This document shows, piece after piece, positions 3,077-60,405 of a stretch of DNA of 64,000 nt (position 1 is its first letter; each line of letters opens with the position of its first letter). The stretch covers positions 95,542,001-95,606,000 of the forward strand of contig JAGIQG010000009.1 of the NCBI GenBank assembly GCA_024679065.1. Reading direction: 5' to 3'. Below the pieces are notes generated by a model. That model searched no databases. It saw only the letters and a list, made by a program, of their open reading frames with translations, and was not told the origin of the DNA. The position numbers were made by a program, and so were the translations under genes. The DNA is from Sphyrna mokarran (Eukaryota).

Positions 3077-6000
3077 ATGGAACTATTTCACAGGATTCTA
3101 AAAATATACTACACAATTCTTGCTGTTATAGGTGTTTCGGGTAAGTGCCCATGAATACTGAAGTTGTGTAAATCTGTGTGAATTTGTTTCTCGTTTTATC
3201 CTATGATTGAAAATGTTACACACTATCTACTGGTGAATGTTATCGGCACCGAATCCGTGGGATCATTACATTAAGGGTATAGCTGATTCAGAAATCAGTA
3301 CAGATAACTCTCAAAGGTGAGATATTCCTGGTTGTCTATGTTACAGTTATATTACATGTGGGTCATCACCTTGAACAAATTGGTTATATTTTTATGCACA
3401 GGTTTGAATCCCTCCTTCTGTTGTTCTAAATAGTTTCATTGGAGATGCCGGGGTTGGACTAGGGTAAATACAATAAGATGTCTCACACCAGGTTAAAGAC
3501 CAACAGGTTTATTTGGTAGTCGCTACCAAATAAACCTATTGAACTTTAACCTAATGTTGTGAGACTTCTTACTTCGTTCTAAATATTACCAGTTACCCAG
3601 CAGATATTTATTGTTAGCTGAAGATATTTGTGAATAACTGTACGCAATAAAATGTATTGATACTGTTCTGTCTCCATTGGAACTGCTCCAAAATAAAAAA
3701 AAAATGCTAACTATTTGTAATAGTTAAATATCAGGTAAATATCAGGACTACACAGTTACTGCACTCAAACCGTGTGGACAACAGCTTACTCTCACATTCA
3801 GAATAGTTACTGTAAACACTTCATTTTTTTAGTGCTGATTAATGTTCCCTAAAGACAGTCTTGAGAATCTGTGTGTCGTGGATGTTTTTTTTAATGATTG
3901 TCATTCACAGGGGGTGAATTTTGAACTAGGGTCAATCAATTTCCCATTTGTTTAATATTTAGCGGACCAGTAATTATCCAGCTTACAAGTCACTATGTGC
4001 ATAATTTACACCAATCTCTGCTTTTAGCTCAGTGAGTTGTCTCCCCTCGAGAAAGGACAGTTATGACTGAAGAACATTGATGCTTGTTTTTGTCATGCAG
4101 AAATCAGTTTGGAGTCAGTAAATAGGAACATTATTAAATTGCTAATAATTAAATAAATAGTGCACACCTCAATTGCTAAGAACTACTAATTGTGATTAAT
4201 TCATTCATTAAGATGGCCACATCGAATATGCAGCTCAGGGATAAATCATTTGGCCTTTGATGTACTGCACAGAAACCTTCTCCCATTGTTTCCCATATAA
4301 CCTGGTCGTCCTATTCTGTACCACCTATCATTGGTTTCTGAATTTCCCCTTAAATTAATCCATGTTATTCCCATTAACGGCTCCAAGTTGTTGTGAATTG
4401 CACATTTCGACCATTCTGTGAGTAGGCATGTTCTCCCAGAATACACTTTTGGATTTATTAATGACTATACTGTTTTAATGATATATATTCTCATACCACC
4501 CCCATCAATTGTACCTTTTTGATGGCTGCTTTATCAAACACATTCATCATTTTCCAGCACTTGTTGCTCTGCAGTCCGCATTAACTTTTCTAAAGAAAGA
4601 CCTCAACCTGATATTTCTTTCTGGGTTGTTAAAATCTCTCAGTTCTGATATTATTCATCTCAAAGATTTTGTACATTCTGTGTAGTCAGATCCTTATTGT
4701 ACTCTGGCAACCAGATTGCACACAATGAGTTCAAGAACCAACCATCTATGTACGTTTACCATGAGCTCTTTTCAATTCTTTTCCACTCAAAATAAAACTT
4801 GTTGATTTGTTTGACTTTCTTTTAATGCATGCACTAATTTAAATAATTCGTGAATCTGGAGCTCCTTATTACTTTGGTTACATCACTCATTGTCTTTCTG
4901 TTTATAATTATAATTTCCCAAAGTTGACGATTATTTTCCATTCACTATTTGCCAGTTTGATTCTGCCCGTTACAAATTACCCTATTTTTCTCTTTCTCTC
5001 TCTCTCTCTCTGTGCAATGATTTATTTTTACTTTTAGAGTATTTGAGTGTGGGAGTAAATCTCTCTTTCCACACTTGGATAGAGCATTGCTTGTACTGAA
5101 CCTGGATCATTTTGTGCAGTTTCGCTCCCTTTGTTGAAGAACCGGTACATTCACGATTGAAAGAGTTTGTTTTTTCACTCGTCCTTGGGCTATAGTTGTC
5201 TTTGCTTGGGCCAGCACTTATTGCCCATCCCAAATTGTCATTACACAGCATGCTATTCCAGAGGGCAGATAAGAATCAGGATTCAACTGTGGCGCTGGAG
5301 TCTACTTGCAGCTTCCATTCCGTAGAGGGTATGAGTGAATCTGTGGCATTGTGGCTCAATCCACAGCACGTGGACTGCAACATTTCAAGAAATAGGCTCA
5401 CCATTTTTCAAAGCAAACCAGGGACAGGCACTAAATGTTATCCCACAAATCTATATAAAAACAGAACCAGATCGGGTTTCATGGGTTCAACAAGCTTTCA
5501 TGAATGCCAGGAATGGAATCTTACTGCCTGTCTGCCATGGGAGTCGGAGCTGGGCGTGAGGATGGTAGAAACGTCTGCTGCCCTTAGACAGGATTTTATA
5601 GTTTTGGGACAAGTGAGGCCATAAAATCCCACCCCAGATATTTGTTAATACATGGGATGTCTGAAATTCTACTCTTTGTTCTCTCTTACAGTTAATTTAG
5701 CTGCGATATTAATCCTGTCCCGAGGCAAGTGTGGCCTCTCCGCCTGCACTTCTCGTTACCTGGTGGCCATGGCGACGGCGGATTTGCTGTTCATTATCAG
5801 CTCCGTGCTACTCTATCGAATAGGCCCTTATTATTTCCCTGTATCTTTCCTGGAAATCACTCCTGTATGCTGTATTACCTTTGTACTGCTGTATGCAACC
5901 TCAGAATGTTCTGTCTGGTTCACCGTCACTTTCTCCTTTGATCGATTTGTGGCCATTTGTTGCCACAAGTTCAAAACAAAATATTGCACCGAGAGAATTG

Positions 6001-6602
6001 CTACTATGGTTCTAGCAGCAACCGGAATTCTGCTCTGTTTAAAGAATATTCCCTTCTACTTTAGATTTGAACCTGGAGAGATCATCGATGATGTTGCCTG
6101 GTTTTGCAAAGAAAAGCCAAGCTATTATACTGATCCTGCATGGGTAGCATTTGACTGGTTTGATAAGGTTTTAAATCCATTTCTCCCATATATTTCAATT
6201 CTGTTGCTCAACGCTCTAACTGTCAGGTACATTGTAGTGACCAGTCGTGTCCGTGAGGGACTTAAGGGTCACAGTAAAGGAGATAATCACAGCGACCCAG
6301 AGATGGAAAGCAGAAGGAAGTCTGTGATTTTACTCTTCACCATATCCGGCAGCTTCATACTTCTGTGGCTTTTATATGTTACAAATTTTTTGTATTATAT
6401 AATTACCGGAATGAACTCTGAATCTTACAATGATTCATTATATACCTTGGCAGAAGTTTCAGTAATGCTGGTGAATTTAAGTTGCTGTACAAACACATTT
6501 ATTTATGCAGTGACTCAGTCCAAATTCAGAGAACAGTTAAAATATGCAGTGGAATATCCGATTGTTTCACTTATTCAATTAATTAATAAAGAAAATAACT
6601 GA
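3077..6602 (+). CDS. GPR139-like: GPR139-like class A GPCR, 2 coding exons (3077-3140, 5692-6602), 324 aa, intact
   Basis: Exon 1 ATG 3077 reads MELFHRILKIYYTILAVIGVS+G then GTAAGT at 3141. Acceptor ctcttacAG at 5690-5691 joins in phase 1 to VNLAAILILSRGKCGLS... 7TM motifs: YLVAMATADL (TM2), FSFDRF (TM3), FILLW (TM6), NTFIY (TM7). A phase-1 intron in TM1 matches the GPR139/GPR142 family. The ORF-track start at 5652 is intronic. Confidence 0.9.
3440..3575. mobile_element. Penelope terminus, inverted pair (others at ~11570, 31277-31545, 50505-50680, 55675-55790)
   Basis: AAATAAACCTGTTGGACTTTAACCTGGTGTTGTGAGACTTCTTACT-like terminus and its reverse complement. Confidence 0.7.
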
Positions 6603-13831: not shown

Positions 13832-15247
13832 CTATCTCATTGCACCAATATTCTTGTATTGAAACAGGAGGAGTTGCTTGAAGGTTTTCTTGAAGGTAGG
13901 ATTACACAGTGCATAGCAGGCTGGGTTCACGGTGCTGTTGAAATAAAAGATCCAATATCCAATAATCCAGATTGTGTTGGGGACACAGGTTGCACAGAAG
14001 GTGTCAATGAGAACCATGACATTGTATGGGGCCCAGGTGATGAAACAAGCCAGGAGAATAGCCAGGACGGTCTTAGTCACCTTCTTCTCTCGGGATACAG
14101 CTTCCTTCTTCGTAGCAGAGATATTGGCCATTGTAATGATCACATTGTCTTGTCTGGTCTCTCTATCATGCCCTCTCTTACTATTGATACATGGCACCGT
14201 TCTTACTGTGGTACCACAGTGGTCATTGTTATGAGGTTCGTTAACTATCCTAAGGCAGGAGAGTTTGGTGTTGTCCATCCGGAAAAAGCTTTGTGCAGTC
14301 GAGGTACTTGTGCTCTTTTGTATTGCCTCTTCCTGCTTCTGGTTTGCTGATACCACGTTGAGGGAAGTTATCTCATTGTGAGGCTCCTTTTCTTGGCCAC
14401 ATATCGCAGTTCTTATTTTTCCAGTTATTTTGGCACCTTGCATTTTGGCTTGTGGCAAACCACCAGGAGCATTTGATGTGCTGCTGCTATTCAATTCCGT
14501 TATCTTTCTTTTCTCTAGGCTGTGGGAAACGGCTCCCTTGCTCGATTCAGACATCTTTTTATCTTCCATTATTCGACTCTTGCTGGCTCGAGATATTTGC
14601 ACGTATAAAATCATCATGATGAGCACAGGGAGGTAGAAGGCAGCTATCGCAGTGCCAAAAGTGACAGCTGGATTTGAAAAAAATTGCACATAACACTCAC
14701 CTTCACTAACTGTCCGCTCCCCTACAATGAACTGCCAGAAGAGAATGAGAGGCGCCCATAGAATAAAGGACACCACCCAAACAGCTCCGATCATCATCCC
14801 TGCCACCTTTGTTGTCCTCCACACGGGGTAGCTGAGGGGCTTTGTCACGCAGAAGTAGCGGTCAAAGCTGATAACCAGGAGGCTCATGGACGAGGTATTA
14901 CAGACAACATAATCTAGAGCCAGCCACAAGTCACATATCACTGGACCAAACGGCCAGTAGCCAATTAGGACGTAAATGTTGTAGAGATTCATAGAGAACA
15001 CACCAATAACCAAATCAGCACAGGCCAAGCTGAAAAGAAAGTAATTGTTAATAGTTTGTAAATGTCTGTTTAGTTTGATAGACATGATGACCAAAATGTT
15101 TCCAATAATTGTCACCAAGCTCAAAGCAGCTGTCACAGTCACCATGAGGACCACTTCAAATGTTTTGTAAGGACTCCCTCTTTCGCTGAGTAACAAGTCT
15201 GCTGGGTTGTAGAGAGATTCATCTGTCTGTGTAGAGCTTGCCATCAT
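13832..15247 (-). CDS. CHRM2-like: Muscarinic acetylcholine receptor M2-like GPCR, single coding exon, 471 aa, intact; divergent paralogue
   Basis: [73 protein letters not shown] and [15 protein letters not shown] all match M2. Splice acceptor (cttcAG, 15272-15271) lies just upstream of ATGATG at 15247, so the ORF-track start at 15310 is intronic. Confidence 0.92.
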
Positions 15248-17607
15248 TTCCCTCTGATGTGTAGTTAGCCCTGAAGAAGCATAAGTGTAGAAACTAAAAG
15301 AGGAAATCATTAGGAAATAGATTTCGGATATTTTGAAATTAAAAAAAAAAATTCATTGAATTTCTAGCAGCAAGATAAAAACAATTTTTGTTCTTAGAAA
15401 CCAGTATCTTTGGGGGGAAGGGTTCTGTTTTAATGAGGAATACTTCACCAGTCATTTACTTAACTATGAAAGAATAGTGAATTACTTGTTCCAAATTGAG
15501 TGAAGATGTTGATGAGCCTCATTGCAAACCTTGGGCTTTAGATTCATTGATCCAACATGTCTGGGTGAATCTTTTTTGCACTCTGCAAATATTCACCTGA
15601 AAACTTTCATCCCCTATGTTCATGTATCGAGATCACAACCTCATTTAAACCTAAAATGCCCAGATCTACTCTGAAGTAATGTAAGAAGGCAAATATTTAA
15701 TGTTGCATACCACATGATCTCTCACTTTTTACTACCATTCTTCAATATTTCCACGCTAGGCTGTTTTTCTTTGCAGCCCCAAGCACCACTGACTTAACTG
15801 GATGCTGATTAAAATTTCATCTCTTCCAACCTAGAGATGTTGCTACCAGATCTTTCCCAGACACCATCTAGGAGATCCTAGTTAGCCACTCCCCAACATA
15901 GTGCTCAACATCTCTCCTTAAGTATTGTCTTCCCCCCATTAAATCCATGTTCTGCAGGCCCTCTTTGAATCATATATTTTCAGAATATAAAATCTTACAT
16001 GTTTTCTCTACTGCCCCATTTGCAGGTCAAATAAAATATAATAATATTACTTTGTTTGATTATGAAATCTTTGCAAGCTGTAAGCATCTTTTCTCCTTCC
16101 TTTTGAATATTACATCTAAAAGTTCAAACCCCTGTTTATCTCCAAATGCAAATTTCTACCCATGGCTTATTTACTTGTCAGAAAATTAACTTGTCATGTT
16201 TACTTAATATGCATTGCACAGATATCTCAAACTTTATTCATCATGGGTACCCAGCATAACTAAATTATGTCCACACATTTATACGCAAGTCTGTTTCTCA
16301 AAGTAACACAATAAACCCCAAAATTATTAAATGCAATACCATCTCTCATTACACTTCCAAAGTGGCATGATCAATTGGTTTGCAGTAATAAACTCAATGT
16401 TTAACTCAAGGAAGCCTGGTTAAACTGGCTCTTTTAAAACATAAATATATTTGGTATGGGAAAAGGAGTCCAGATTGGAAGGGAATCATTTTGAAAAAAT
16501 GTTGTTGAGACTAACCAAGGGTTGAATAAAAGGAACCAGTTCATCCTTCTTCGCCAGGAGAATTTTATTGATGCCATCTCTAGAATTATGGCTCATGCCA
16601 AGCTAGTTCTCACAGACAGAGTGCGCTAAACTTGGGAATATCACCCTGGAATATGTCATTACATAGGACATCCCAGCATAAAAATTCCATTCAAGTCTCC
16701 TCTCATATTTCGCCATCTTATTTTTCAATCAATTCACTTCATGTCTTGTCCAGTTTCCAATCTAAATGATTTTTTTTTAATTATTCCCGGTAATAGCGAG
16801 TCCCACATTCTCACCCCTCTTTGGGTAAAGAAGTATTTTCTGAATACTCCATCGACTTTCTTGGTGTCTATCTTATTTTTTTGAGCAGCTGCATCTGATC
16901 CTTCTCACAAAAAAATCTACAATATGAAAACATGTCAGAATTTTAAATATGTCTATTATGTCTAGTGGACTTCAGCCTCAGTTTTTAAGAAAATAGACCA
17001 AGCTCATCAATTCTTTTCTGCTATGTATTACAAAAAATTTTGTAGTCTCATTTTTGCAAATCTTCCCTACACCCACTCCACGGCCGCTAGCTTATTGTTC
17101 TATATCTTCAACATATCTTATATGCAGCATTCTATGTATTCTTGCGTACTTACAAGTTAGCATGCACTCCTTACATTTCAAGTCTACTCTCCTGGAATAC
17201 TAATGCTTGGTTTGCTTTCTCCCCCTTCAATGCAACTATGCAATGCAACTTTCAGCAACTGATGCATTTGTTATTCTTTGTTCCTCTACCCCACTGAGAC
17301 TTGCAACTTGAAGTAATAAGTACACTCCTTCTTCTCTCTACCAGATATGAACTTGCTGTCATTTCTACTGTTGCGCTTCAGTTGCCAATTATTTTCCCAT
17401 TCTGCAAGTTTATTTCTTTTTTCCCACACTTTGTCACACCCTAAATATTGATCTTTTCTGGCCTTCAATGTGGTGTTCTGCAGGGGAGCTAGGATGAGAT
17501 GGTGGTGCTGTTGGTGTTAGGGACCAGGGACGTGAGTGGTGGAAGAGTTTGTTGAACATAAGATGAGTTGGAATTCAGTTTAGATCATGTAAATTCATTT
17601 GTTCTTC

Positions 17608-20600
17608 TCAACACTTAATGGATTTAATCATTTGAGTAAATGAATATTTGACCATGTTCGTCAGTTGCTCTCGGAAATTCATCTGAGTCATGGCAGAAAC
17701 ACAAATGTTTGTGCTGCAACTCAGGAGCTGCAGCGTAAAACCTACTTCCCACATAATATCAAACATCAGTGCAGGTTCATGCTCTGGAAATCACATTCCT
17801 GCCCGTGTGGGATGCCCCACATATGTGGGCCATAACAGGATGAAAGTCCCAGGGATAATAAATAGGAGCATGACAAATTTCCTTTCACTCTTCATCTCGA
17901 AAGCTTTGGGAGTCTCCCCATGGTAGGAAACCTGGAGTATCTTGCAAGTTTGACTGGTCAACAAAATATGTCCAACAGTGAAAGCGTTGAACAGCAGATT
18001 CAGAATAAATGGGTGAGAATGCAATTCAAGAGCATAATTGTGAACCAGACTGGTGATTCCAGAGCAAGGCAAGTTCCACAGCTGATGCTTATCCATTAGC
18101 ATAAAATACCACATAGTATCTTTTAAACAGCTCAGCACAGTCACTGTTCCCAGAGTGGTAGCCGCAGTTTTCACAGTACAATATTTAAATTTCAGTCTCT
18201 GGGAATAGATGACCACAAATCTATCAAGAGTGAAAGTGCTGGTGAAGTGGACAGAACAGTCTGTGGCTGCATAAAGCAGAACATTACGGAGGTTACACAT
18301 GGGGATGGAGTACACTGTTTCCTATAAACAATTGGAATGTGCCTCGGCATCAGGTTGATAATAACAAGCAGCAGACCTGCCATTGCCATAGTCAACAAGA
18401 AGCTTGTAACACATCTATAGAGACTGCACTTTCCCTGAGAAAGCATCACAATTGTCACTACATTAACTGTGAGGGAGAGATATCAACAGGGAAAATATAT
18501 ATCAGACTGGGAGCAGAATTACCAGTTTCAATAATTACTTGTTGCCACGTCCAGTGGTCTTATGATTTATTTTATTCTTTCAGTGGATATGGGTGACACT
18601 AGCTTAGCCAGCATTTGTTGCCAAATGTAATTTCCCCTGAACGGAATGGTTTGGTAGGTCATTGCACAGAGCTGTTAGGAGTCAATCACATTGTTGTGGG
18701 TCTGGAATGACACACAGGCCAGGCCCGGTGAGGATCATTGAATGACTACAGCACAGGAAGAGGTCATTTAGCCCTTCCTGTCTGCACAAACTTTCCAAAG
18801 GAACCAAAAGGGGATAGCAGATTCAATTACCTAAAGAACATAAAAGAAACAGATGTCTTTTTTTTTGCAATCAGTGACAGTTATCATGCTCACCATTACT
18901 GACACTCATTTACATTAGATTTTTGAGTGGGCTTATCTTAAGTTGAGTTTTCCCTACACTCTGTAACACTATATTCCATGCCTTGTCCTTTCCTTTCCCT
19001 TTTTATACACTATGAATGGCATGCTTTGCCTGTATAGCACAATAAACAATATTTTTCACTGTATCATGATGAATCAAATACTGGAGATATTTGTTAACTG
19101 ATTTCAACTTTCATGAATTCTGACAGTGAAATTTGAATCTATTCCCTCAGGATATTAGCCTGGACTCTGTGCTTCCAGGCCAGTGACATTATCACTGCAC
19201 TACCATCACTGTAAGTGTTTTACTATTTGGTGTTTCTTTTCTTTCTAGCCCAAATGAACCATGCTTTCCCTGTGATATGGCATGAATGTACTCCACATGT
19301 GATCAGATGAGACATTCCTTGACATAAGACGAGTGAAAGCAACAAGTTTTAATCAGAGAACAACATCACGCTGATGCTGCTGCACAAGTTAACCAGGCAA
19401 AAGGCAACATGTAAATACCCATTAGTCATCTGCCCCACGCTTGTGTCATCATGATCTCGTTTACCTTTGGTTCCAATAAGACTATGTTTTAGTATAATTT
19501 TCATGTTTTGGATGCCATACACAACATCATCATTTATTGCCCAATAATAATTATCATTAGGGTGTTGTGATCAAGGCCTTGTGCATCTCATGTTCCTCAA
19601 ACTCAACAACACAATACTGGAAAAAGACAGCAAGCTTTGCTCTCTTTGCTGCCTGATGCCAAAGAACACATTCCTTGTTAAGGTGTTCAACACAGGTATT
19701 TATGAGGAACACGCACATTGTTTGACTATAAAAATAGACATGCAAAGACTACAAACTGACCCATTTATCCAAGATGGTCATTAACAAGGTTTAAATCTTG
19801 TCCTGAACACATCACTGCTTGCTATGAAGTCTGGGCATCTGCCAAGAACTCTCAATAACCTCCAACTTTAATGACTACATGATATTTTTGGCATTACATA
19901 GAAAGACAAAGTCATCTATCAGTCCTTTCTGGGAGCTCCAATCAAGTGGCAGAACATTCATTGGTTTGGCATGTGCATAGGAATGAAAATGGTTGTATCA
20001 CCAAGGATATGATGTACGATGAGGTATCTGTTGCCACAAGAAGAAAAATACAGTGGATGATCACATCTGTCCTGGTCAAAGATGAGGTTTCCACTCTCAT
20101 TATTACTGGCAGGTGGAAGGATGGGAGCATGAAGTCAATATTATGCTATATTTGTAGTCATCATATCTACTGGAGAGAGTAAGCACCAATTGATGGAAGC
20201 AATCATTACATAGAAATTAGTATTTGGTATGAAGCAAACGATGTCTAATCGCACTTTCTGAAAGAACACATAAAGGTTTGTGCAGACCTATTGTGTCACA
20301 GTGGAAAGAGCTGAGCGATGAAGCAAGAACAAAAGATAACAAGAATAATTCACAATGAAGGAGAGAGGAATGCGGTAGAAGGATACCTGTTGATGCTGGC
20401 TGAGAGATTCCCTCACCTGTTACAGGCAGCATAGAATCCAATGATTCAGGGCAGTAACAGGAAGAGGGTCCTTTGAAAATCGTTGGGACTTTTTGTTTTG
20501 GAAAGAAATTCACTGAGAATCATAGAATAACAGAATCCTTACAGTGCAGAATGAAACCATTTGGCCCATCATGTCTGCACTGACAACAATCCCACCCAGG

Positions 20601-21859: not shown

Positions 21860-22239
21860 TTCAGTGGAAACGCTGATCCCTGTTAGTGTCAGAGATAATG
21901 CTCTAGCTGACACTAAGAAATATAGCAAGTTGAGAGCAACGTTTTATTAACAGAAAAGACTGTGATGCAGTCAGTTCCACTGAGACTGCCATTAATTAGT
22001 ATGACTGAACAAACAAGTTTAGTTACCCAATTTCAATCTGAGACTTATTATCACAACAAATATTTTGTGAACGGTCCATGTGTACAACACTTTAAAATGT
22101 CCAGCACATTCTCAGGTTGAACACAAACCAGAACAATTTGCCATCTTTTTAGACAGTAACTACAAGGCAGTTTAGCTTTATGAGAGAAAGGTTTGCTCCT
22201 TTATGTTGAATTCTGTGCTGATCATTGCCTGATGTATTT

Positions 22240-25800: not shown

Positions 25801-26286
25801 TTGGGTGCTTTGTTCCAAAGCATATCTCCTGATTTCATCTTTTAGTGGACCTACATTGGCTCCACTGTGAATATTTTGTGCTCCTGTGACAGTCCATTCA
25901 GAAATGTCGAGGGGCTTGCTACAATGGGTGCAACTTGGACATGAGTACGGTGTATCTATCGTGAGCCTATTGTTTCCATCAGCCTTGCTCACTGGCCATG
26001 CCGGGGAGTTAGTGGTGCTTGTGGTCTCTTTCAGAATCCTCTTTTCCACTAACCCTTTCACTGTCTCCACTACAGCTTTCTCTACCTCTGGTTGTATTGG
26101 CTATTGTCGGTGTAGCTTGTGCTCCAGTCCTGGTACCTTTATTGGGCCTGTTTTAGTTAAGCTGGTATCTAACTTTATTTTAGCCCATACGCCAGAGATG
26201 GAAGCACAGATGGCTCCGAACCCTCCTGTCTTGAATTCCCAATTTCTGATGATGGTTGCAGCCACCTTAATGGTTTCAAGATGACT

Positions 26287-38504: not shown

Positions 38505-38539
<35 letters not shown>

Positions 38540-42655: not shown

Positions 42656-43469
42656 AGAAACAGCGTCAATGTTGAGAATTGTCCAATCAGATAAATATAG
42701 TTGCTTTCTCACAGTGGTACAGTGGTTAGCACTTGCTGCCTCACTGTGCCACCGTCTTGGGTTCAATTCCAACCTCGGGTCACTGCCTGTGTGGAGGTTG
42801 CACATTCTCCATGCGGCTTTCTTTTGGGTGCCCCAGTTTCCTCCCACACTCCAAAATGGGTGGGTTCCTTAAATAAGTCATTACCAAATTGTTCTTTAGT
42901 GTCCCAAGATGCGTGCATCAGGGGATAAGCCATGTTAAATATGTCGGACTACAGTGGTAGGGCTACAGGGTGAAGGTGCTCTTCACCCTGTAGGCACGGG
43001 CTCGTTGGGCCGAAGGGCCTGTTTCCCGTGCTGTTTTGTTCTTTTTTCTTTATTGATTCTAACTTCATCACTGACCAGAGTGAATGACCTGAAATGAGTT
43101 TGATACAGGGACAGAGGGAAGGACATTTAAGCTAACCATTCAATTCGATCATCCCTGATCTGAACTCCAGTTTCTGACAATAACCCATATCCTTAGATAT
43201 CATTATCCAATAAAAATCTTACATTTTAAAGTTCCAATTGTTCGCAATTTTTGGTGGAGAGACTGGATGTGGATTCCAGAATACTGAATCATTTTAACAT
43301 TTTAAAAAGATCTCCCGTCCAAATTCTGAACTCTCTGGAATGAAAATCAAGTTGATACAACCCTTCAAACTTTATCCTTCAGATTAAAAACCCTAAACTC
43401 TAAAGTGCATCCTGAGAAAGAGATTCTTTATTGTCCATTGTCAGTGTTGTGGAGTTGGGGGTAATATTT

Positions 43470-45015
43470 TTTTTAAAGATTAAAGATTAAAGAGCAACAC
43501 AGCACGGGAAACAGGCCCTTCGGCCCAACGAGCCCGTGCCGCCGTCATAACTATATAGTAGCAAATCCATTATCCTATTATATTATTCCTATATAATAAT
43601 ATATATTATTCCTAATATGGAAAATTCTCACTATAGGGACAATTTGTTTCCCAATCAGCCTAAGAGCGAATTTTTGGGTTGTGGGAGGAAACCGGAGTGC
43701 CCGGAGAAAACCCACACAACCACGGGGAGAACGCGCAAACTCCCGCAGACACCGGCCCAATTCCAAGTGTCTGCACAGCCACATCGATAGTCTCTGAGCT
43801 GTCATGGTGCCCTTCAGATGGTCCACATAAAGCACTCATTTACGACATGAGGTACCAGGCAACCCATGAATCAACATCCAAGAGCTGTCCTCGCACCACC
43901 TGCCGAATGCATGCTCAAATTATGGACCGAATTACCTGTGGAAAAAAGCCGTAGTTAAACAGTCCTAATATATCCCTCTATCTGCATACCGCTCATGTGG
44001 CTGTCCAAGAGACCCTTAAACAGCCCCAGCGTGCCTGCTCCCACCACCTTACTCGGCAGTGCATTCCACACCCCCACTACCCTTTGTGTGAAAAACTGCC
44101 CTCTAATATTCGTCCTATACATAGCCCCCCTCACCCTATGGCCATGACCCCTCGTCCTATCCATTTCTAAAGGCGGAAAGAGTTTACCTCCATTTACTCT
44201 ATCTATACCCCTTATAATCTTATACACCTCTATGAGATCCCCTCTAAGCTGACGTCTTTCAAGGGAAAACTACCCCAGTCTATCTAATCGTTCCTCATAA
44301 GACAGTCCTTCCATACCAGGCAGCATCCTGGTAAACCTCCTCTGCACTCTCTCCAAGGACTCCACATCCTTCCGATAGTACGGCGACCAGAACTGGACGC
44401 AGTATTCCAAGTGAGGCCTAACCAAAGTTCTATACAACTGCAACATCAAACTCCTACTCTTGTATTCTATACCCTTTTCTATGAAAGCTAACATACTATA
44501 CGCCTTCTTTATCACCTTCTCCACCTGTGAGGACACCTTCAGAGACTTGTGAACCTGCACCCCCAAGTCTCTCTGCGTCTCTATGCTCCGTATAGTTTTA
44601 CCTTTTATCCTATAACTCTCTTCTACATTTTTCCGGCCAAAATGCATCACCTCGCATTTATCCGGATTAAATTCCATTTGCCATCTATCTGCCCAGTCTA
44701 CCAACCTGTCTATGTCCTGTTGTATTGCCTGACACTGCTCTTCTGTACCTGCCAATCCAAGCATCTTGGTGTCATCAGCAAATTTGCTGATCTCACCACC
44801 TACCCCTACTTCCAAGTCGTTTATGTAGACCACAAATAGAAGAGGACCTAGTACTGAGCCTTGTGGCACTCCACTAGTGACAGGCTTCCAGCCGGAAAAA
44901 GAGCCTTCCACTACTACCCTCTGTCTCCTCCTCCCGAGCCAGTTCTCGACCCATCTACATACCCGACCCTGTATCCCATGCGCCTTCACCTTCTCTATCA
45001 GTCTACCATGAGGAA
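43470..45015 (-). mobile_element. Young 5'-truncated CR1 LINE
   Basis: ORF2 RT with GVPQGSVLGP and KFADD (44989-44270), one in-frame stop, continues to 43955; 3' UTR and tail to ~43470; absent from the duplicated unit at ~47190. Confidence 0.92.
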
Positions 45016-46057
45016 TGTATGAATTTTGTATGAAGGTTTTGTATGAATAGAGGATTGGTTATTAAGAACATAAGAACAAGGAGTAGGAATAGCCATCTGG
45101 TCTCTCGAGCCTGCTCTGCCATTCAATAAGATCATGGCTGCCCTTTTTATGGACTCAGCTCCACTTACCCACCTGCTCACCACAACTCTTTCACAAAGGG
45201 TTTTGGCAAAGAGTCATCTGCACTCAAAAAATCAACTTTCTTTTCTCTTCTTACAGATGCTGACAGACCTACTGAGATCTCTTTTGGAACCATAGCTCTT
45301 AATTCCTTTACTGTTAAAAAACGCATCTATCCTTGCCTTAAAATCATTCAACAAAACAGCCTCAATTGCTTCACTGACAGGGAATTCCACAGATTCACAA
45401 CTACTTGGGTGAAGAAGCTCTTCCTCAACTCAGTCCTAAATCTGCTCCATTCTATTTTGAGACCATTCACTCCGACTCTTTGTTTTCTGTTAGTTAACAT
45501 ATTCTCTATCCATGCTAATAATTATCCATAACACAGTGCGCCATTATCTGATGCACAGTCTTTGGTGCAGCATGTTGTCAAATGCCTTCTGGAAATCAAG
45601 GTCCACCACATTCCACAGATTCCCCATTGTCCACTGTGCATGGAATGTTCTCAAAGAATTCCACCAAATTTGTTAAACATGAGCTGCCCTTCGTGAATTC
45701 ATGCTGCATCTCCCCAATGGGGCAATTTATATCCAGAAGTCAAATAGACAAGAAACATTGATTTGACATAAATGGGCCAGTTTCAAGTTGGCCGGCTCTG
45801 GTTAGTGAAGTGTCAATAGGATCAGTGCTCGGACAATCAGCCATTTACAATCTACATTCATGACTCAGGCCAAGAAGACGAGTGTAGTGTACCTAAACAT
45901 GCAGCAGCTACAAAGCTAGGTGGAAATGCGGAAGGATTAAATTGGTTAGGATTGTATTCATTGGGGTCTAGAAGAATGAGGAGGATCACACAGAAACTTT
46001 CAAAATTCAAAGAGGCCTCGACAAGGTAGTTCCAGGACACCCCAAAATCACCAACAC

Positions 46058-46088
<31 letters not shown>

Positions 46089-46179
46089 GATCAGGGCATG
46101 AACCCCAAAACACTGATTCCAAACGTGGGGAAAACTTACACCCAGCCTGGCATTGCCCCTCTCACAGCCCATCACTCAG

Positions 46180-46243
46180 CTGCAGACACCTCTCCACACA
46201 GAAGGACCAGCACTAACAGTCCAATCATTGATGCTTCCCTCAT
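46180..46243 (-). pseudogene. Orphan duplicated MHC class I leader exon with dead splice donor
   Basis: MREASMIGLLVLVLLCGEVSA+G followed by CTGAGT instead of GTGAGT (46179); no exon 2 of its own. Confidence 0.85.
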
Positions 46244-46361
46244 GTTGGGGAAACATTTGGAGAAACTCTTTTCCAAAAAAAAAGCCTTTTTCTCAACTCA
46301 CTCCTTCTGTCTTTCCCGGTTCACACTGAGCCTCAGTCTGATTGGACACAAAATAGGACTG

Positions 46362-46426
46362 AACCAATCAGAATAAAGAGATTCAGTGAGTCATCAGTCT
46401 CCGGCAGAATTGAAACAAACAGGTTG
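46362..46426 (-). promoter_or_regulatory. Duplicated S-X-Y module
   Basis: Nearly identical to 42591-42655; second CCAAT intact at 46341-46345. Confidence 0.75.
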
Positions 46427-49400
46427 AGAAACTGCTTCAATGTTGAGAATTGTCCAATCAGGTAAATATAGTTGCTTTCTCACAGTGGTACAGTGGTTCG
46501 CACTGCTGCCTCACTGTGCCACCGACTTGGGTTCAATTCCAACCTCGGGTCACTGCCTGTGTGGAGGTTGCACATTCTCCATGCGGTTTCTTTTGGGTGC
46601 CCCAGTTTCCTCCCACACTCCAACACGGGTGGGTTCCTTAAATAAGTCATTACCAAATTGCCCTTTAGTGTCCCAAGATGTGTGCATCAGGGGATTACCC
46701 ATGGTAAACACGTAGAGCTGCAGTGGTAGGACCAGGGTGAAGGTGCTCTGTCTGAGATTGGTGCTGAATGGGCTCTTTCCATGATTCCAACTTCATCACT
46801 GACCAGAGTGAATGAGCTGAAATGAGTTTGATACAGGGACATAAGGAAGGACATTTGAGCTAACTATTCAATTCGATCATCACTGATCTGAACCCCAGTT
46901 TGTGACAATAATTAGCCAATAAAAATCTATCACTCTTACTTTTTAAAGTTCCAATTGTTCACCATTTTTGGTAGAGAGACTGGATGTGGATTGCAGAATA
47001 CTGAATCATTTTAACATTATAAAAAGATCTCCCCTCCAAATTCTAAACTCTCTGGAATAAAAATCAAGTTGATAGAACCCTTCAAACTTTATCCTTCACG
47101 TTAAAAACCCTAAACTCTAAAGTGCGTCCTGAGAAAGAGACGCACTTTATTGTCCATTGTCAGTGTTGTAGAGTTAGGGGTAATATTTTTGTATGAATAG
47201 AGGATTGGTTCTTAAGAACATAAGAACAACGAGCAGGAATAGCCATCTGGTCTCTCGAGCCTGCTCTGCCATTCAATAAGATCATGGCTGCCCTTTTTAT
47301 GGACTCAGCTCCACTTACCCACCTGCTCACCACAACTCTTTGACAAAGGGCTTTGGCAAAGAGTCATCTGCACTCAAAACATCAATTTTCTTTTCTCTCC
47401 TTACTGATGCTGCCAGACCTACTGAGATCTCTTTTGGAACCATAGCTCTTAATTCCTTTACTGTTCAAGAACGCATCTATCCTTGCCTTAAAAACATTCA
47501 ATGAAACAGCCTTAATTGCTTCACTGGGCAGGGAATTCCACAGATTCACAACTACTTGGGTGAAGAAGCTCCTCTTCAACTCAGTCCTAAATCTGCTCCG
47601 TCCAATTTTGAGGTGATTCATCCCGACTCTTTGCTTTCTGTTAGTTAACCAATCCTCTATCCATGCTAATAATTATCCATAACACAGTGCGCCATTATCT
47701 GATGCACAGTCTTTGGTGCAGCATGTTGTCAAATGCCTTCTGGAAATCAAGATCCACCACATTCCACAGATTCCCCATTGTCCACTGTGCATGGAATGTT
47801 CTCAAAGAATTCCACCAAATTTGTTAAACATGAGCTGCCCTTCGTGAATTCATGCTGCATCTACCCAATGTGGCAATTTATATCCAGATGTCAAATAGAC
47901 AAGAAACATTGATTTGGCATAAATGGGCCATTTTCAAGTTGGCCGGCTCTGGTTAGTGAAGTGTCATTAGGATCAGTGGTCGAACAATCAGCCATTTACA
48001 ATCTATATTCATGACTCAGGCCAAGAAGACGGGTGTAGTGTATTTAAACTTGCAGTAGATACAAAGCTAGGTGGAAATGAGGAAGGATTAAATTGGTTAG
48101 GATTGTATTCATTGGGGTCTAGAAGAATAAAGAGGATCACAGAGAAACTTATAAAATTCAAAGAGGCCTCGACCAGACAGTTCCAGGAAGGATGTTCCCA
48201 ATAATGGGGGAGTCCTGAACCAGGGGTTGTTGTTTGAAGATACAAGGTAAACCATTGAGGATTGAGGTGAGCAGAAATTTCTTCATCCAGGGAGTGGTAA
48301 GCCTATGGAATTTACTATTGCAGACAGCAGTTGGGGGCAAAATATTGTATATTTTCAACAGGCAGTTAGATATAGAATTTGGGGAGAAGGGGATCAAAAG
48401 ATATGTGGAAAGGCTGGATTGAGTTGAAAAATCAGCCGTGATCATAATGAATGGCAGAGCAGGTTTGATGGGCTGAATGGCCTGTTCCTGTTCCTGTTTT
48501 CTCAGTTTCTATGAAATGCAAACCGTGTGGACGATTAGAGAGCTGCAAAAAAATTTGGTCTAGTTAAGTGAATGGACTGCAAGATGGCAGATGGAGTGTA
48601 AGGGGGGTCATTGTGGGGTTTCACTGTGTCTCCTGCCAGCACAATATGGCCTTCTGCAGATTCACACTGGCCCATACAGATTTCACTCTGAATAACCCAG
48701 CCTATAAGAAGGTCTTTAAATTGAAGCATGTCCATCCTTCAGTAACAGCATCCCACTTTGTTATAGTGTACAAGGGTGTAATAATGAGAGGGTGGAGTGA
48801 GAGACAGAGTCAGAGTAAGTTGTGGCAGTGAGGCACAGGTTTAAAATAAAGTTCCAGAAAACCTTACAAAGACTATTTTTCACTTAAAAATGTTCTATCG
48901 AAGAGGCAGAAGATGTAATCTGATCTCTTGATGATATTGGAGACAAGCACAGTATTAATCTAAAGTAAAGTTACAGTTTATTTATTGTCACAAGTATGCT
49001 TACATTCACACTGCAATGAAGTTACTATGAAAGATCCCTAGTTGCCACACTCTCGTGCCTGTTCGGGTACACTGAGAGAGAATTAGCATGACCAGTGCAC
49101 CTAACCAGCATGTCTTTTGGGCTCTAGGAGGAAACCAGAGCATCTGGAGGAATCCCACGCAGATATGAGGAGAACATGCAAACTCCACACAGACACACCC
49201 AAGTTGGGAATCAAACCCAGGTCCCTGGCACTGTGAGGCAGCAATGCTAACCACTGTGCCTCATTCTTCCCTAATTTCACACTCAGCCTCCCTGACCTAT
49301 TGTAATTTCTGCAGGTTTCAGACAGAAATGCTTTTTGAAATGAATGATTGTGTCTAAGGATATTTCTGAGAACAGGGCACATTTATTTACTTATTAATTC

Positions 49401-52102
49401 AGATGTAATGAAGTGAGACAGTTTTATCTGTGGGCCCAGTGAATGCACATTGCACAACACTTCTGTCTTTGAGCTGAAATATTGCTTCCTATTTCATATG
49501 GTTAGAAACCACTAGGATTATTCGTATGTGACAGAGAACAGAGTTGCTGGGAGGGGGATGGGGGGGTTGTGGATGGCAGGAAGAGGGTGCAGGGGGTGCA
49601 GGGGAGTAGTGCTATTCAATTTTGCTAGCACAGTTTGAAAAGTAGAACACTTTTTAAATTTAGATCCCTGTGTGTACTCCACAAGGAACACACAAATTCT
49701 TTCAGGTAGAATCATAGAATCTCTGCATTGCAGAAAGAGATCATTCAGCCCATCGATTCTCCAACAGAGCATCTTATCTAGTCTCTATACCGATAACCCC
49801 AATATTTACATGGCTAATTCTCCAAACTAATACATCTTGGGAGGGACATTAAGGGCCATTTAGCATGGCCAATCCTAACCTGTGGGAGGAAACTGGTTCA
49901 CCCAGCCAAAATCCACATGGACATGGGGAGAATTTTCAAAGTCCACAAGACACCCTTGGCTAGAGCTGAACCTTGTCTCTAGCACTGTGGGGGCAGCAAT
50001 GTTAACCACTGTGCCAAAGCACTCACCATTCAATATGCAATCAGAAAAGCTAATGATATCTTGATGTTGCAAAGGGATTGGAGAGCAGAATAAAGAATTC
50101 TTATCACAAATGTAAAGACCATTACTAACACCACACCTGCAATTCTGTGTAGATGTTTTCCAGGCAGATGCACAGAGGACATTTCCTTCTCTGAATCTCA
50201 GAAGGATCAGGACTTTTTTAATGAGGAAAAATTGAGCAGGTTGGGATTTATTTATTGGAGTTTAGACAACTGAGAGGTTATCTCGCAGAAACATTAGATT
50301 CTGATAGGGCTTGATAAGGTCGACACTGAAAGATTCTATCTGTTTGTGAGCAATAAAACATGGGAGCAAAGCCTCAGGGTAAGAGGTGAATCAGTTAACA
50401 TGAGGAGAAATTTCTTCACTGAAAGGATTGTGGATCTTTGCCATTCTCTGTCCCAGAGTATTGTCGATGCATTATTATTGAAGATATTGAAGATATGATG
50501 TTAAGATTCCAGTGTTGGACTGGGGTAAAACAGAAAGAAATCCCACAACACCAATTTAAAGTCCAAACAGGTTTATTTGTAGCAAAAGCCCCAAGTTTTC
50601 GGGACAGCCTGTCCCTTCGTCACGTGGCTGGGAGTTCGACAGAAACCTGTTTGGACTTTAAACTGGGATTTCTTTTTATATTGAAGATAGACTGATTTGT
50701 GATGTCTCAGTGAATGGAGGTTTACAGAGAGTAGGAGTGAAAATGAAGATGAGGTAGAAAATCAGCTATGAATGTATTGAATTGTATTGTATTGTATTGA
50801 ACAATCGTGGCTGTAAAAAGCAGCGATAATGCTCTGGCTCAATAAAGTTAAATAAATTCACCTTTCACTTTGCCGAGGCTCTTTGGCACTTTAACCACGG
50901 TTTCTTCTTGATGGCACCTTTGTACCTGGAGCCTCAGCATCCAATTCCAGAAACTATTTTAGTAACATTGCTTGGGCAATGTGAGGTGGGAAATTTAGCT
51001 CCAAGTCAGAATAACTGCAATATCCAAAATAGCAAGGTGGTAGGATTGAAAATTTAAACTGAGTTCAGATTAGGTTGCAGAAATCCAGGAAATATAAACA
51101 AACATGGATATTTTTAATTGGTCCATCCTTCTAAACATTTTATGTAACTAATTTAAATTAGAATCATACAGTGAAAACAATTATTACAGAAAATAATAAC
51201 AACTAAGTATTTGTATTAAAGAATAAAAATTGTTTTTTAGATGATAGTCATCAGCATCCAAAACATTGATCAAGGCTTATCAATAGCAGGTGGGTCTAAC
51301 TAGCTGGGTCAGCATTTGTTGCCTGTCCCTAATTCCTCTTGAACTGAGTGTCATTTATCAGTCAACCACATTGTTGTGCCTCTGGAGTCACATGTAGACC
51401 AGAGCAAATAACAACAGCAGGTTTCCTTCCCTAAAGGATATTTGTGAATCAGATGGGTTTTCAACAACAAACATTGTCATGGTCATAAAGCCTTTCATTC
51501 CAGATTTTTATGGAAATCAAATTTCATCATCTGCCACGATGGGATTTGACATTGTCAGAGATAGTCACTACAATAGCAGGGACCAGATGCCATGGCCACA
51601 ACAGGAAATGGCAGGCCATTGAAATCCATGAAGCTAAGGTGGTCAGGGCATGCTCAGGCAATGTCCACCAGGCAGTGCCAGGCTGGTAGTGCTCATCTGA
51701 CATGCTGGCACTGCCATCTTGCACCCTGGTGGTGCCTGGTTGGAAACTATATGTGTACCAGAGGTGAGGTCCAAGTGGAGGTAGGGTTATGATAGGGCAG
51801 TATGCATAATGATGGTAGGGCTTATTGGAGGGTAGTTCTATAAAAGAGGAGCTCTGCAAAGGGGTCATTGGACAGGAGTGGGACATAGAGGGGTTGGGGG
51901 AGTCATGACAGGATGAGGGTGGACATGAATGTCAGGTGCCTACCAGCGACTCATTGGGCAGGTCCTGTTGCCCTGATACTGGCAATCAATGTTGATATGG
52001 AGCTGACAATGTCAATGATGGTGGGATGTATCCAATCCAGGTGCGAGGTGAAATTGCTGAGCCTCTGACGCAAATCTTTGTCTCTTCCTTGGACACAGGT
52101 GA

Positions 52103-52380
52103 GGTAAGAACTCAGTAAGAATTTAGCAACACCAATTATTAATCCAACCGATTTATTTGATAGTAAATCCGCGAGCTTTCAACACTCTTGTGTCTTCCTC
52201 AGGCAAGTGCAGTGTTCTGCACTTGCCTGAGGAACACTGCACTTGCCTGAGGAAGACACAAGAGTGTTGAAAGCTCACGGATTTACTATCAAATAAATCG
52301 GTTGGATTAATAATTGGTGTTGCTAAATTCTTACTGAGTTCTTACCACCCCAATCCAACGCCGGCATCTTTACATCATGA
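52103..52380. mobile_element. Penelope-like element terminus as a near-perfect palindrome
   Basis: Inverted arms 52103-52217 and 52232-52346 (115 bp, 1 mismatch); target duplication ACAGGTGAGGT at 52095 and 52383. Confidence 0.85.
52247..52276 (+). ncRNA. Minimal hammerhead ribozyme motif (mirror copy on - strand at 52173-52202)
   Basis: CTGAGGA-A-GACAC-AAGA-GTGTT-GAAA-GCTC. Confidence 0.6.
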
Positions 52381-54290
52381 CTACAGGTGAGGTCCCAGAG
52401 GACTGGAGAATAGCTAATGTTGTACTGTTGTTTAAAAAGGGTAATAGGGATAACCCTGGAAATTATAGGCCAGTGAGTTTGACGTCAGTGGTAGGGAAGC
52501 TGTTGGAGGGGATTCTTAGAGATAGGATGTATAGGCACTTAGAGCATTGCAATCTGATTAGGGATACGCAGCATGGATTTGTTAAGGGGAGGTCGTGCCT
52601 TACAAATCTGGTAGAATTTTTTGAGGAGGTGACGAAAAAGGTGGACGAAGGGCGAGCCGTTGATGTTGTCTATATGGATTTTAGTAAGGCGTTTGACAAA
52701 GTCTCTCATGGGAGGTTAGTCGAGAAGGTCAAGGCAAATGGGATACAAGGACAGGTAGCTAGATGGATAAGTAACTGGCTTGGTAATAGGAGACAGAGAG
52801 TAATAGTGGAAGGGTGTTTTTCTAGCTGGAGGTCAGTCACTAGTGGTGTGGCACAGGGCTCGGTACTGGGACCTCTTCTATTTGTAATATATATAAATGA
52901 CTTGGAAGAGGGAGTAAGTGGAGTGATCAGCAAGTTTGCAGGTGATACAAAGATGGCTGGACTTGCGGATAGTGAGGAGCATTGTCAGGCAATACAGCAG
53001 GACATAGATAGGCTGGTAGCTTGGGCAGACAGATGGCAGATGGAATTCAATCCTGATAAATGTGAGGTGATGCATTTCGGCAGAAAGAATGTAGGGGGGA
53101 GGTATATGATAAAGGGTAGACCTATTAAGAGTATAGAAACGCAGAGGGACCTGGGGGTGCATGTGAACAAGTCTCTGAAGGTGGCAGAGCAAGTGGAGAA
53201 GGTTGTGAAGAAAGCATATAGTATGTTAGCCTTTATGGGAAGGGGTATAGAGTACAAGAGCTAGCCTTTAATGTTGCAGTTGTATAAAACGTTGGTTAGA
53301 CCTCATTTGGAATACTGCGTCCAGTTCTGGTCGTCTTACTACCGGAAGGACATGGAGACTCTGGAGAGAGTGCAGAGGAGGTTTACCAGGATGCTGCCTG
53401 GTATGGAAGGTCTGAGTTACGAGGAGAAGTTAGGCAAATTGGGACTGTTTTCCTTAGAAAGACGTAGACTTAGAGGAGATCTAATAGAGGTGTACAGGAT
53501 TATGAGGGGTATAGATAGAGTAAACAGGGTTAAGCTTTTTCCCAGGATGGACTCGAATAGCACGAGGGGTCACGGGCTTAGGGTGAGGGGGGTAAGGTAT
53601 AATTTGGATGCTAGAGGTAGTTTTTTCACACAGAGGGTGGTGGGGGTATGGAATGCGCTGCCAAGTAAAGTGGTGGAGGCAGGTACTCTGGAGTTATTTA
53701 AGAAATACTTAGATGGGCACATGAACAGAATGGGAATGGAGGGGTATAGAAAACTGATTTAAAATAGGGATCATGAGCCTTGGGTGTCCCTAGGAAGTGT
53801 GTAAATTGATGATATTGGTGTACTTGTTTTTATCCTACAGGTGCTTTGGTCCACCTTGTTGTCTAACGAGGAGCATACACACGATGGGTCACGAGAGGGC
53901 TGCTCTTGGATTTTTCTTTTCGAGAGTATCCTAGTGCTTCACGTCGTAAGTGTACGCTTGACCTGGACCATTTGATGGGCAACACGACAGCTCAGTGACT
54001 GTCACTGTGCTGTGCAGATACATGGATTTGGGCCTGTGTCTGTGGGAGTTTGCACATTCTCCCCGTGGTTGCGTGGGTTTTCTCTGGGTGCTCCGGTTTC
54101 CTCCCACATCCCAAAGATGTGCTGTTAGGCTAATTGGCAAAACAAATTCTCCCTAAATTGGCTCAAATTGGGTTTTCCATCCATAGATCTATAAACATGG
54201 ACAGGGATCGCAGGTAGAGGCGGGAACATCGGGGTGGCGGCGCGGGCTTGTTGGGCCGAAGGGCCTGTTTCCCGTGCTGTTTTGTTCTTT

Positions 54291-59225: not shown

Positions 59226-59643
59226 CTAAACTCCTGAATTCTACCCCATACCCCAAACATTCAGCAAATGATCAGACTCACCACAAAACAGAACTAATAT
59301 TAAATCCTGTTGGAGTGACAGACTCCAGTGGCCGACTTTAGGGAAAACACTGGGAATTCTGACCTCATTTCAGAGATTGAGCAGCTTTGTGAATGCGTCC
59401 AGGGTGAGATGGTGCAGGATGTCCCGACACCTCAACACCCACAATCTCTCCACCCTCAGACTGTACAGAAGCAGCTGTCTCCAGAAGGCCAGTGTCAAAG
59501 CTCAGGTGTTGGATTGGATGAGCTGCTCTTTAGTGATTATACAGTGAGGAACAGACACTGAGCTCACATCCCACCCACCAGATTGTACAGAAAATTCATG
59601 TTAGAAGGATTAACTCCCAATATTTATCAACACAGTTCATACC

Positions 59644-60405
59644 TCAAGAACGCATGGAGGAGCTGGATGAGGAATCTCCACCATCAGAAGCTGTTAAAGG
59701 AAAAAGTGACATTAAAAACTTTTCATTTTTGTAGAGACAGAGACTGTGGATGAGATAAAGAGAGAATGAGGGAGACAAAGACAGGCACAGAGAAAGAAAG
59801 GGGTTCTCACACACATACCGATGGTGACACACAGAAATATAATCTCACACAGTGTTTGATGGTGAACTTACTCTTTGCAGAATTGTAGTTGCTCTTCCCT
59901 CTCCCTGTAAAACAAGAAATGCTCAGTGAGTGACGAGATTGAGAGAAAATCAGAGACAGAGGCGGGAGCTCTTGCTTATACTGAGCCCCTGCATCAGAAT
60001 TCTGAACCTTCATGACCCGAGAACCTCACTCCCAGCTTCACTTTGGGACCATTACCCTGACTTGCGACCCTCACAGATACTCTGATCTCCATCCACAATC
60101 TGAGACACTTTCTATAAATCAGATACTCCCCCTTTATCGGGAGCCCCTTATCCTCCCTATCCAACCCTAGGGCTCTTCCACCCACTCTGTGCCCCCCCAC
60201 ACCAACCTGAGACCCACATCCTGAGCCACCCCCACTCTGGAATACTCTCCCAGGATCCCTCCCCCGAGTGAGGAGCTGCTATTTTCCCTCCAATTCCTAC
60301 CTTTCTTGTTGTAGATGACGACAGCCACAACGATGAGAGCGATGAGCACGAGGACCCCGACCACAATCCCGACTGTAACAGCAATGTGGGAGCGAGACTT
60401 TGGTT
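59644..60405 (-). CDS. Second MHC class I paralogue, 3' exons only (TM 60405-60301; cytoplasmic 59904-59872 and 59690-59644); 5' exons presumably beyond the window
   Basis: EPKSRSHIAVTVGIVVGVLVLIALIVVAVVIYNKK / GRGKSNYNSAK / TSDGGDSSSSSMRS*; same exon sizes and splice sites as the 33.5-34.3 kb copy. Confidence 0.85.

Follow-up and report, generated by a model that had tools for sequence, protein, structure and literature searches.

Gene Content of the Window

The window analysed here is a stretch of 64,000 nucleotides of Sphyrna mokarran (C1548:95,542,001-95,606,000; all contig labels refer to the same 2.77-Gb shark assembly, G000) on C1548, the contig that carries the major histocompatibility complex (MHC) region and makes up 4% of the assembly. 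On the forward strand it harbors an intact gene for an orphan GPCR (G protein-coupled receptor), and on the reverse strand a coding exon derived from the muscarinic receptor gene CHRM2 (M2-like), the remains of a second gene of the orphan family upstream of that exon, and MHC class I genes. A preliminary description had listed these receptor, M2-like and class I genes, and reading frames, domain matches and motif controls confirmed that all of them are real. Our main subject is the position of the M2-like exon behind a foreign promoter, and all analyses were made on DNA and protein sequence and on predicted structure.

The M2-Like Array

The CHRM2-derived coding exon is located at 13832-15270 of the reverse strand, with a splice acceptor at 15270 and an open reading frame (ORF) at 15247-13832. 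Among solved structures, human M2 is its best match (609 bits), and the closest named M2-like protein belongs to Mustelus asterias (87%). The window copy retains D3.32, Y3.33, W6.48, Y6.51, N6.52, Y7.39 and Y7.43 and is changed at three of 20 pocket sites (S3.36C, V3.40S, C7.42F), the sites and their generic positions being those which we take to form the pocket. Its one-to-one partner in Mustelus (P0167) has the same residue at all 20.

Altogether, 12 M2-like loci were found at C1548:94.89-96.18 Mb, flanking the class I cluster on both sides. Nine are intact, one has a damaged start, one is broken and one is an inverted fragment. CHRM1-5 are each present once elsewhere in the assembly, as judged by reading of the sequences, with the canonical CHRM2 on C1437. 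A 35-row clade of M2-like shark proteins (carcharhiniform, lamniform and orectolobiform) with a support of 97 in the SH-like approximate likelihood ratio test (SH-aLRT) is sister to the canonical CHRM2 of G000 (96), and by this placement the M2-like loci are a galeomorph-wide clade of the CHRM2 lineage. Nine copies have a one-to-one Mustelus partner, and all 20 pocket sites are identical in seven of these nine pairs. The ten copies compared have a single coding exon and an invariant D3.32, Y3.33, Y6.51 and Y7.43. Elsewhere in the pocket, N6.52F occurs in seven of ten, W6.48L/F and T5.39I in four each, C7.42 is changed in six and V3.40 in every copy. All ten deviate from the pocket common to seven bony-vertebrate M2s and to shark CHRM2/CHRM4, and none of the seven bony-vertebrate M2s has a change at N6.52, W6.48 or C7.42. 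The dN/dS of the core was 0.09-0.29 in seven pairs. The window receptor, presented in the preliminary description as a divergent paralogue, is indeed not the single CHRM2 orthologue but belongs to an expanded birth-and-death family under purifying selection with changed pockets.

According to Pedersen et al. (PMC6298421), whose paper nowhere uses the word "cartilaginous," no muscarinic duplicate that arose outside tetraploidization is known in any vertebrate, and the acetylcholine-binding residues are conserved in all sequences studied there. Twelve tandem CHRM2 copies with rebuilt pockets stand against this view, as stated there, of no muscarinic duplicates beyond whole-genome events. M2-like copies share with CHRM2 the single coding exon and the core amine residues, but differ in their tandem duplication, changed pocket and foreign promoter, and such natural variants of the pocket bear on muscarinic pharmacology. 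An independent M2 expansion was also seen in stingrays (Hemitrygon, Hypanus; P0186, P0188, P0192, P0262, P0196, P0252, P0261), with N6.52S in six of seven copies, N3.37Y/S and A5.43G; the altered N6.52 position is the same as in the shark array.

A Receptor-Family Promoter Upstream of the M2-Like Genes

Upstream of the M2-like exon and on the same strand, the window holds a gene of a cassette-specific subgroup of the orphan family. Its exon 2 (17593-18466) is dead, bearing three frameshifting deletions but still a splice acceptor, and its exon 1 with the GT donor (21778-21859) is intact and would be the leader exon of the M2-like gene. A splice from this exon to the M2-like one would be in frame in the window, adding 35 residues. 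An alignment of ten cassettes delimited a conserved promoter at 21860-22050, also on the reverse strand, with a palindrome, a TATA-like block and blocks which we take to be forkhead-like and homeodomain-like.

The top seven of 14 genome-wide DNA matches to the promoter and exon 1 of this subgroup all adjoin M2-like copies. All nine intact M2-like ORFs have a subgroup promoter, exon-1 region and GT donor on their own strand, 4.6-11.5 kb upstream, and the partner exon 2 is open in four of these cassettes, broken in four and deleted in one. Two damaged same-strand copies have lost the donor (one) or the whole leader (one), and leader retention differs between intact and damaged copies (Fisher p = 0.018, the copies not being independent). 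Repeats aside, the sequence common to M2-like copies and canonical CHRM2 extends from about -0.4 kb (at most -0.75 kb) to +1.7-1.9 kb. The promoter comparison covered 30 kb upstream of canonical CHRM2, where neither a family gene nor a subgroup promoter was present, and 14 kb upstream of each copy. Since the shared piece ends about 0.4-0.75 kb upstream of the ATG, it brings along the acceptor and, within the 30 kb compared, no promoter. With five of 11 cassettes used as queries, the deep cassette lineages were found to share no non-repeat block between exon 2 and the M2 exon. The arrangement is that of promoter capture, in which an exon moved without its own promoter and the promoter and leader of the host were retained, and it is fairly probable that the family promoter and exon 1 form the 5' end of the M2-like transcript.

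Rates of change were compared between the window cassette and its sister, in which exon 2 was broken independently. Identity is 94% in exon 1 (83/88), 82% in the promoter, 74-78% in exon 2 and 63-71% in the flanks, and promoter plus exon 1 (231/269) differ from dead exon 2 (515/657) with p = 0.010. In run X1, which consists of DNA-like contigs of a relative, exon 1 differs at 4/121 and 5/95 positions, compared with 74/620 in dead exon 2 (p = 0.003 and 0.054), although orthology of these contigs is not proven. Run X1 was rejected as transcript data, as introns and repeats are represented in it too, at about 88% identity, and it behaves as DNA of a relative; informative joints were looked for in it and none was seen.

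Alternatively, the two genes may have been co-duplicated by chance, the M2-like copies using unrecognised promoters of their own as extra cholinergic receptors in heart, gut or nerve, and the leader persisting in young pseudogenes. We regard this as rather unlikely in view of the complete retention of promoter and donor among intact copies, including the one whose exon 2 is gone entirely, of the better conservation of the leader than of the dead exon, and of the lack of any other shared non-repeat block seen upstream. It would agree with the independent expansion in stingrays, with the absence of a muscarinic gene from those listed on the sawfish MHC chromosome, and with the three of ten copies, that of the window included, which keep both N6.52 and W6.48. 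Two further points favor it and at the same time weigh, with those that follow, against promoter capture. Dead exon 2 keeps its acceptor in all four broken-but-present cases and could thus compete for the leader, and only four of nine cassettes have a fusion frame that stays open across the join, the failures being a stop just before the M2 start (two), a stop at codon 3 (one) and a frame that is out at the best acceptor (two). A fusion protein was consequently rejected as the general purpose of the cassette, and for exon 1 a role as 5' leader is more likely than one as fusion domain. The leader peptide is at the N-terminus of none of the 45 M2 and M2-like proteins annotated in elasmobranchs. 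Exon 1 also survives in about four or five of 11 dead family genes outside the cassettes (read by eye), so that leader retention by itself argues with little force. Lastly, promoter and exon 2 diverge alike in pairs with a recently dead exon 2, and the cassette samples are small and related.

Keeping to promoter capture, we propose that a copy of the CHRM2 coding exon landed a few kb behind an orphan-family gene inside the MHC class Ib region, and that the two-gene unit was duplicated about a dozen times. The M2-derived receptors would likely be transcribed from the family promoter and first exon, and exon 1 would be joined by splicing to the M2 acceptor and serve chiefly as a 5' leader. A parallel is described in the available part of PMC11526382 for rodent formyl peptide receptors (FPRs), which captured a vomeronasal promoter by exon shuffling. 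In both systems the promoter ahead of a receptor coding exon comes from an expanded receptor family unrelated to it, but in the shark cassette the donor is a neurotransmitter receptor, the host family is an orphan one, and use of the host promoter is predicted from the sequence. If true, this would be a second natural case of a receptor gaining an expression programme by promoter capture, here a neurotransmitter receptor. What is new is the set of CHRM2-derived copies, with their pockets rebuilt and the foreign promoter in front of them retained; the preliminary description had missed the cassette of promoter, first exon and CHRM2 exon. The class I part of the region is already known.

The Orphan Receptor Family

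The intact gene of the window represents the family to which this promoter belongs. Its own predicted promoter (2967-2994, forward strand) contains a TATA box at 2988-2994 and a palindrome at 2967-2976 which we take to be an O/E (EBF)-type site. Exon 1 (3077-3140) encodes the N-terminus and the first half of transmembrane helix 1 (TM1), ending in phase 1, and exon 2 is located at 5692-6602; databases automatically name members of this expanded elasmobranch family "probable GPR139." Spliced, the two exons (3077-6602) give an open class A GPCR of 324 aa (7tm_1, E-value = 1e-18). The exon-2 model (mean predicted local distance difference test, pLDDT, 85.9) matches class A folds of the peptide-receptor type at 15-21% identity. 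The seven-helix fold, D2.50, DRx, W6.48 and NxxxY are all present, and P6.50 and W4.50 are missing.

The label "GPR139-like" used in the preliminary description does not hold. GPR139/GPR142 are the best sequence match among solved structures, yet with human GPR139 the match is weak (34 bits), and the true orthologues of GPR139 (C749:56.37 Mb) and GPR142 (C783:12.53 Mb) are single-copy genes elsewhere. Orthology was ruled out by the approximately unbiased (AU) test, which rejected a pairing of the window gene with GPR139 (p = 3e-6). Activation of GPR139 by Trp/Phe needs F3x33 (F109), H5x43 (H187), W6x48 (W241) and N7x38 (N271), according to the accessible text of PMC5430874. W241 is kept in the window gene, and F109 is replaced by Y, H187 by D and N271 by V, TM5 being anchored by hand with P5.50 against L182, so that the set needed for GPR139-type activation is incomplete, with two of the four Trp/Phe-binding residues counted as lost. 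GPR139/GPR142 resemble the family as class A receptors with W6.48 and two coding exons (for GPR139, PMC7318219, as far as accessible), whereas the family is only about 25-33% identical to shark GPR139, multi-copy and spread over many chromosomes.

The expanded family came out as one group (SH-aLRT = 92), with a salamander receptor as sister (93), in trees of 112 and 40 rows. Together with this receptor and a coelacanth/teleost singleton it forms one clade (99), separate from GPR139/142 in free trees. The nearest relatives, salamander P0399 and coelacanth P0402, are both annotated as "probable GPR139," and in contrast to the expanded elasmobranch family, few copies were seen outside elasmobranchs; salamanders, coelacanth and a teleost have one or a few conserved relatives. 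AU tests on 29 of the 40 rows rejected a grouping of the family with GPR139/142 without the salamander relative (p = 1e-4) and did not reject one that includes it (p = 0.056). Derivation from GPR139 itself, as the earlier label implied, is therefore not supported, although the deep placement is provisional because the branches are long. The assembly also has two orphan receptors that are related to the family and conserved as singletons, L194 (C805:46.80 Mb) and L193 (C1104:25.01 Mb). The former is 63% identical to the coelacanth protein mis-named GPR139 (P0402), of which it is the shark orthologue, and clusters with one teleost and one UniRef protein.

A 32-nt family motif had 531 exact matches in the assembly and a second motif 388, with no match for the reversed control of the first and none for the controls of the second. 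In the range covered by both listings, the two motifs coincide at no more than 18 of 166 loci, for a union of about 800-850, and capture-recapture gives 1,800-2,950 loci, the motifs being biased toward subfamilies. Motif capture was 32/60 in contiguous stretches chosen for having matches and 9/36 and 12/71 in motif-independent samples, rates which imply about 1,000 to 3,100 loci; about 13 of the first 100 matches are on small contigs and possibly duplicate chromosomal loci. The family thus has at least 531 loci and probably about 800-3,000 across many chromosomes. A first look had yielded 2,524 candidates, a figure rejected as copy number because that look was too loose. All 130 scored matches of the first search share 58-100% identity with the gene of the window; 47 are on C1548 and 83 elsewhere. 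Over about 1.46 Mb of contiguous sequence, exon 2 is open at 40 of 60 loci, one third of them being pseudogenes. A protein search gave 2,178 clusters, with shark names on 119 of the best 120, and members were also found in skates and a stingray. Counting and mapping hence show the window receptor, suspected earlier to be part of an expansion, to be one of a birth-and-death family and not a single orthologue. Dense arrays lie at C1548:103.6-105.0 Mb, C335:78.19-78.59 Mb, C446:1.8-12.6 Mb and C994:3.4-12.0 Mb, and some are very recent, the C335 copies being near-identical and spaced at about 15 kb.

With at least 531 loci in a single orphan family, the genome contrasts with the view, expressed in the accessible part of PMC8455134, that GPCRs are few in cartilaginous fish. 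Neither the family nor M2 duplicates of sharks were found described in the literature covered, most subscription papers lying outside it. Judged by its sequences, the family is large and real, and it is apparently undescribed in the literature found.

A Possible Chemosensory Repertoire

With its size, tandem arrangement, pseudogenes and variable pocket, the family has the make-up of a chemosensory-type repertoire. Pocket-facing positions have an entropy of 1.99 bits compared with 0.86 for the inner TM positions (65 sequences). In 12 of 17 sister pairs dN/dS was 0.20-0.50 by region, indicating purifying selection everywhere. An O/E-like site (at most one mismatch, near -110) is present in 20 of 38 family promoters, compared with 1/38 introns and 2.4 in shuffles, and a TATA box in 33 of 38; the set excludes the C335 subgroup, whose exon 1 escaped the profile. 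The family resembles OR, TAAR, V1R and V2R repertoires in its tandem clusters, birth and death, variable pockets and O/E-like promoter site, and differs in that it belongs to none of them by sequence, lacks homeodomain-site enrichment and is far larger. For 11 cartilaginous fish genomes, 6-13 OR (olfactory receptor), 3-5 TAAR, 2-4 V1R and 8-43 V2R genes are given in the accessible part of PMC10116579.

On this basis, a chemosensory role is a serious possibility that we would place slightly on the doubtful side, and several findings weigh against it. Positive selection, which the preliminary description had proposed to look for as dN/dS on pocket residues, was found in neither receptor family: pockets are varied under purifying selection in both, with a pocket dN/dS of 0.32 in recent duplicates of the orphan family and, among M2-like copies, 10 of 17 pocket sites varying compared with 133 of 261 other core sites. 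Homeodomain sites are not enriched in the family promoters (15/38, compared with 15 and 21 of 38), and these promoters are related by descent. EBF acts in B cells as well. The signature of OR promoters combines homeodomain and O/E motifs (accessible part of PMC6744719). In the catshark, olfactory neurons bear microvilli, and the receptors that they express are V2Rs and not class A ORs, as far as the available text of PMC10116579 goes.

The family could instead act like GPR139/GPR142 as an internal sensor of nutrients, osmolytes or peptides in brain, gut and endocrine cells, and the M2-like copies likewise. Among named receptors, those nearest to it sense Trp/Phe and peptides in brain, pancreas and gut (PMC7318219, in the part available), and its peptide-type fold matches and the one or few conserved relatives outside elasmobranchs point the same way. 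Large tandem families with hypervariable pockets and pseudogenes are, however, the pattern of external-sensing repertoires, and hundreds to thousands of tandem copies with such pockets, a third of them pseudogenes, argue against internal sensing, which we find unlikely.

As for the M2-like receptors, each copy behind an intact family promoter suggests that a receptor for nerve signals was likely recruited into a possible chemical-sensing repertoire. That the M2-derived receptors belong, via this cassette, to a likely chemosensory repertoire is in our judgment evenly balanced, going by sequence features. Aminergic receptors that turned chemosensory are a precedent (PMC8890504, as far as accessible). 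Under this reading, EBF-type control and expression in sensory cells would follow from the captured promoter, and the N6.52F copies would bind, instead of acetylcholine, ligands in which the cationic amine head is retained (choline-like, trimethylamine-like or other amines). The fullest version, in which sharks possess a chemosensory orphan repertoire of about a thousand receptors, much exceeding the V2Rs known from them, into which galeomorphs wired M2 by promoter capture, to diversify inside the MHC into odor sensors of the amine/choline type, is tentative and rather doubtful as a whole.

MHC Class I Genes and Linkage

Class I gene 1 (UBA-type) is located at 33566-42476 of the reverse strand, with seven exons (42476-42413, 42257-41997, 41677-41405, 41000-40737, 34344-34240, 33834-33802 and 33612-33566) and an open frame of 348 aa. 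The two class I copies of the preliminary description are this complete gene and the last three exons of another: gene 2 has its TM and two cytoplasmic exons at 59644-60405 (reverse strand) and its alpha1-3 exons 3.6-5.2 kb beyond the window end. Against 6lup_A, which we take to be classical and to be numbered as we assume, gene 1 shows Y59A, T143I and K146S and keeps Y7, R84, W147, Y159 and Y171; the loss of conserved peptide-anchoring residues is that of class Ib. Its alpha2 is 71% identical to O19480_HETFR and 66% to O19479_GINCI, both presumably UBA sequences.

All 37 class I alpha2 matches are on C1548. Twelve alpha2-bearing loci, about eight with open alpha1-3 frames, occupy 95.58-95.85 Mb, other class I matches lie at 85.8-93.3 Mb and an A2M_recep match at 97.0 Mb. 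UBA is described in PMC10751288, in its accessible text, as a multicopy cluster near c4, set off from the Ia region as well as from the main Ib cluster. The shark cluster matches this elasmobranch class Ib lineage in its multicopy layout, closeness to classical class I, separate position and nearby C4-like gene, and by position, copy number and sequence similarity it fits UBA, a lineage already known (PMC10751288, PMC12562908). Among the copies compared, alpha3 is near constant (pN 0.022) and alpha1 and alpha2 are variable (0.11 and 0.15). A divergent copy (C1548:95679933-95683782) has 52-58% identity in alpha1/alpha2 and 93% in alpha3, which suggests that alpha3 was homogenised across old grooves.

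The preliminary description had tied the receptors to the class Ib genes. Family genes are in fact scattered along the class I region (C1548, 85.2-96.2 Mb), and on the MHC chromosome of sawfish ten are placed between sets of class Ib genes (PMC10751288 supplement, as far as seen; a term search of the main text found no discussion of receptor neighbors of UBA). In seven shark species, M2-like and class I proteins are on same-sized contigs, taken as the same contig, and C1548, with 4% of the assembly, holds 18 of 116 family matches. These facts would suit an immune repertoire, in which the family and M2-like receptors would be EBF-controlled sensors of leukocytes or epithelia, sharing regulation or expression with UBA. 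C446 and C994 nevertheless hold more family matches, 98 of the 116 are on contigs without a class I alpha2 match, and no receptor gene is found between the first and the last of the 12 class I loci. We consider such a repertoire quite improbable, and a specific function with class Ib equally so; the neighborhood stands and a specific tie is not shown, most matches being elsewhere. The linkage to the MHC region is old, without evidence of joint function, and the UBA genes are probably neighbors in a duplication-prone region rather than partners.

A local duplication of the class I 5' region (window 42700-47800) left a second leader exon at 46180-46243 (reverse strand), without a GT donor. The long intron between alpha3 and TM of gene 1 contains 35/69-nt minisatellite blocks (window 37573-40062), in which inverted arms are nested at 38384-39628. 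At window 25795-27018 (reverse strand) there are fragments of a retrovirus-like protease and reverse transcriptase, degraded and split over several frames, with a weak match to Pr125Pol and protease/RT entries (E-value = 0.03-0.08). Two LINE-type reverse-transcriptase remnants, at window 43958-45058 (reverse strand) and 52338-53759 (forward strand), are 79% complementary over 1,044 nt, and a near-perfect inverted repeat at window 52098-52351 has 120-nt arms (98%) and a 14-nt spacer.

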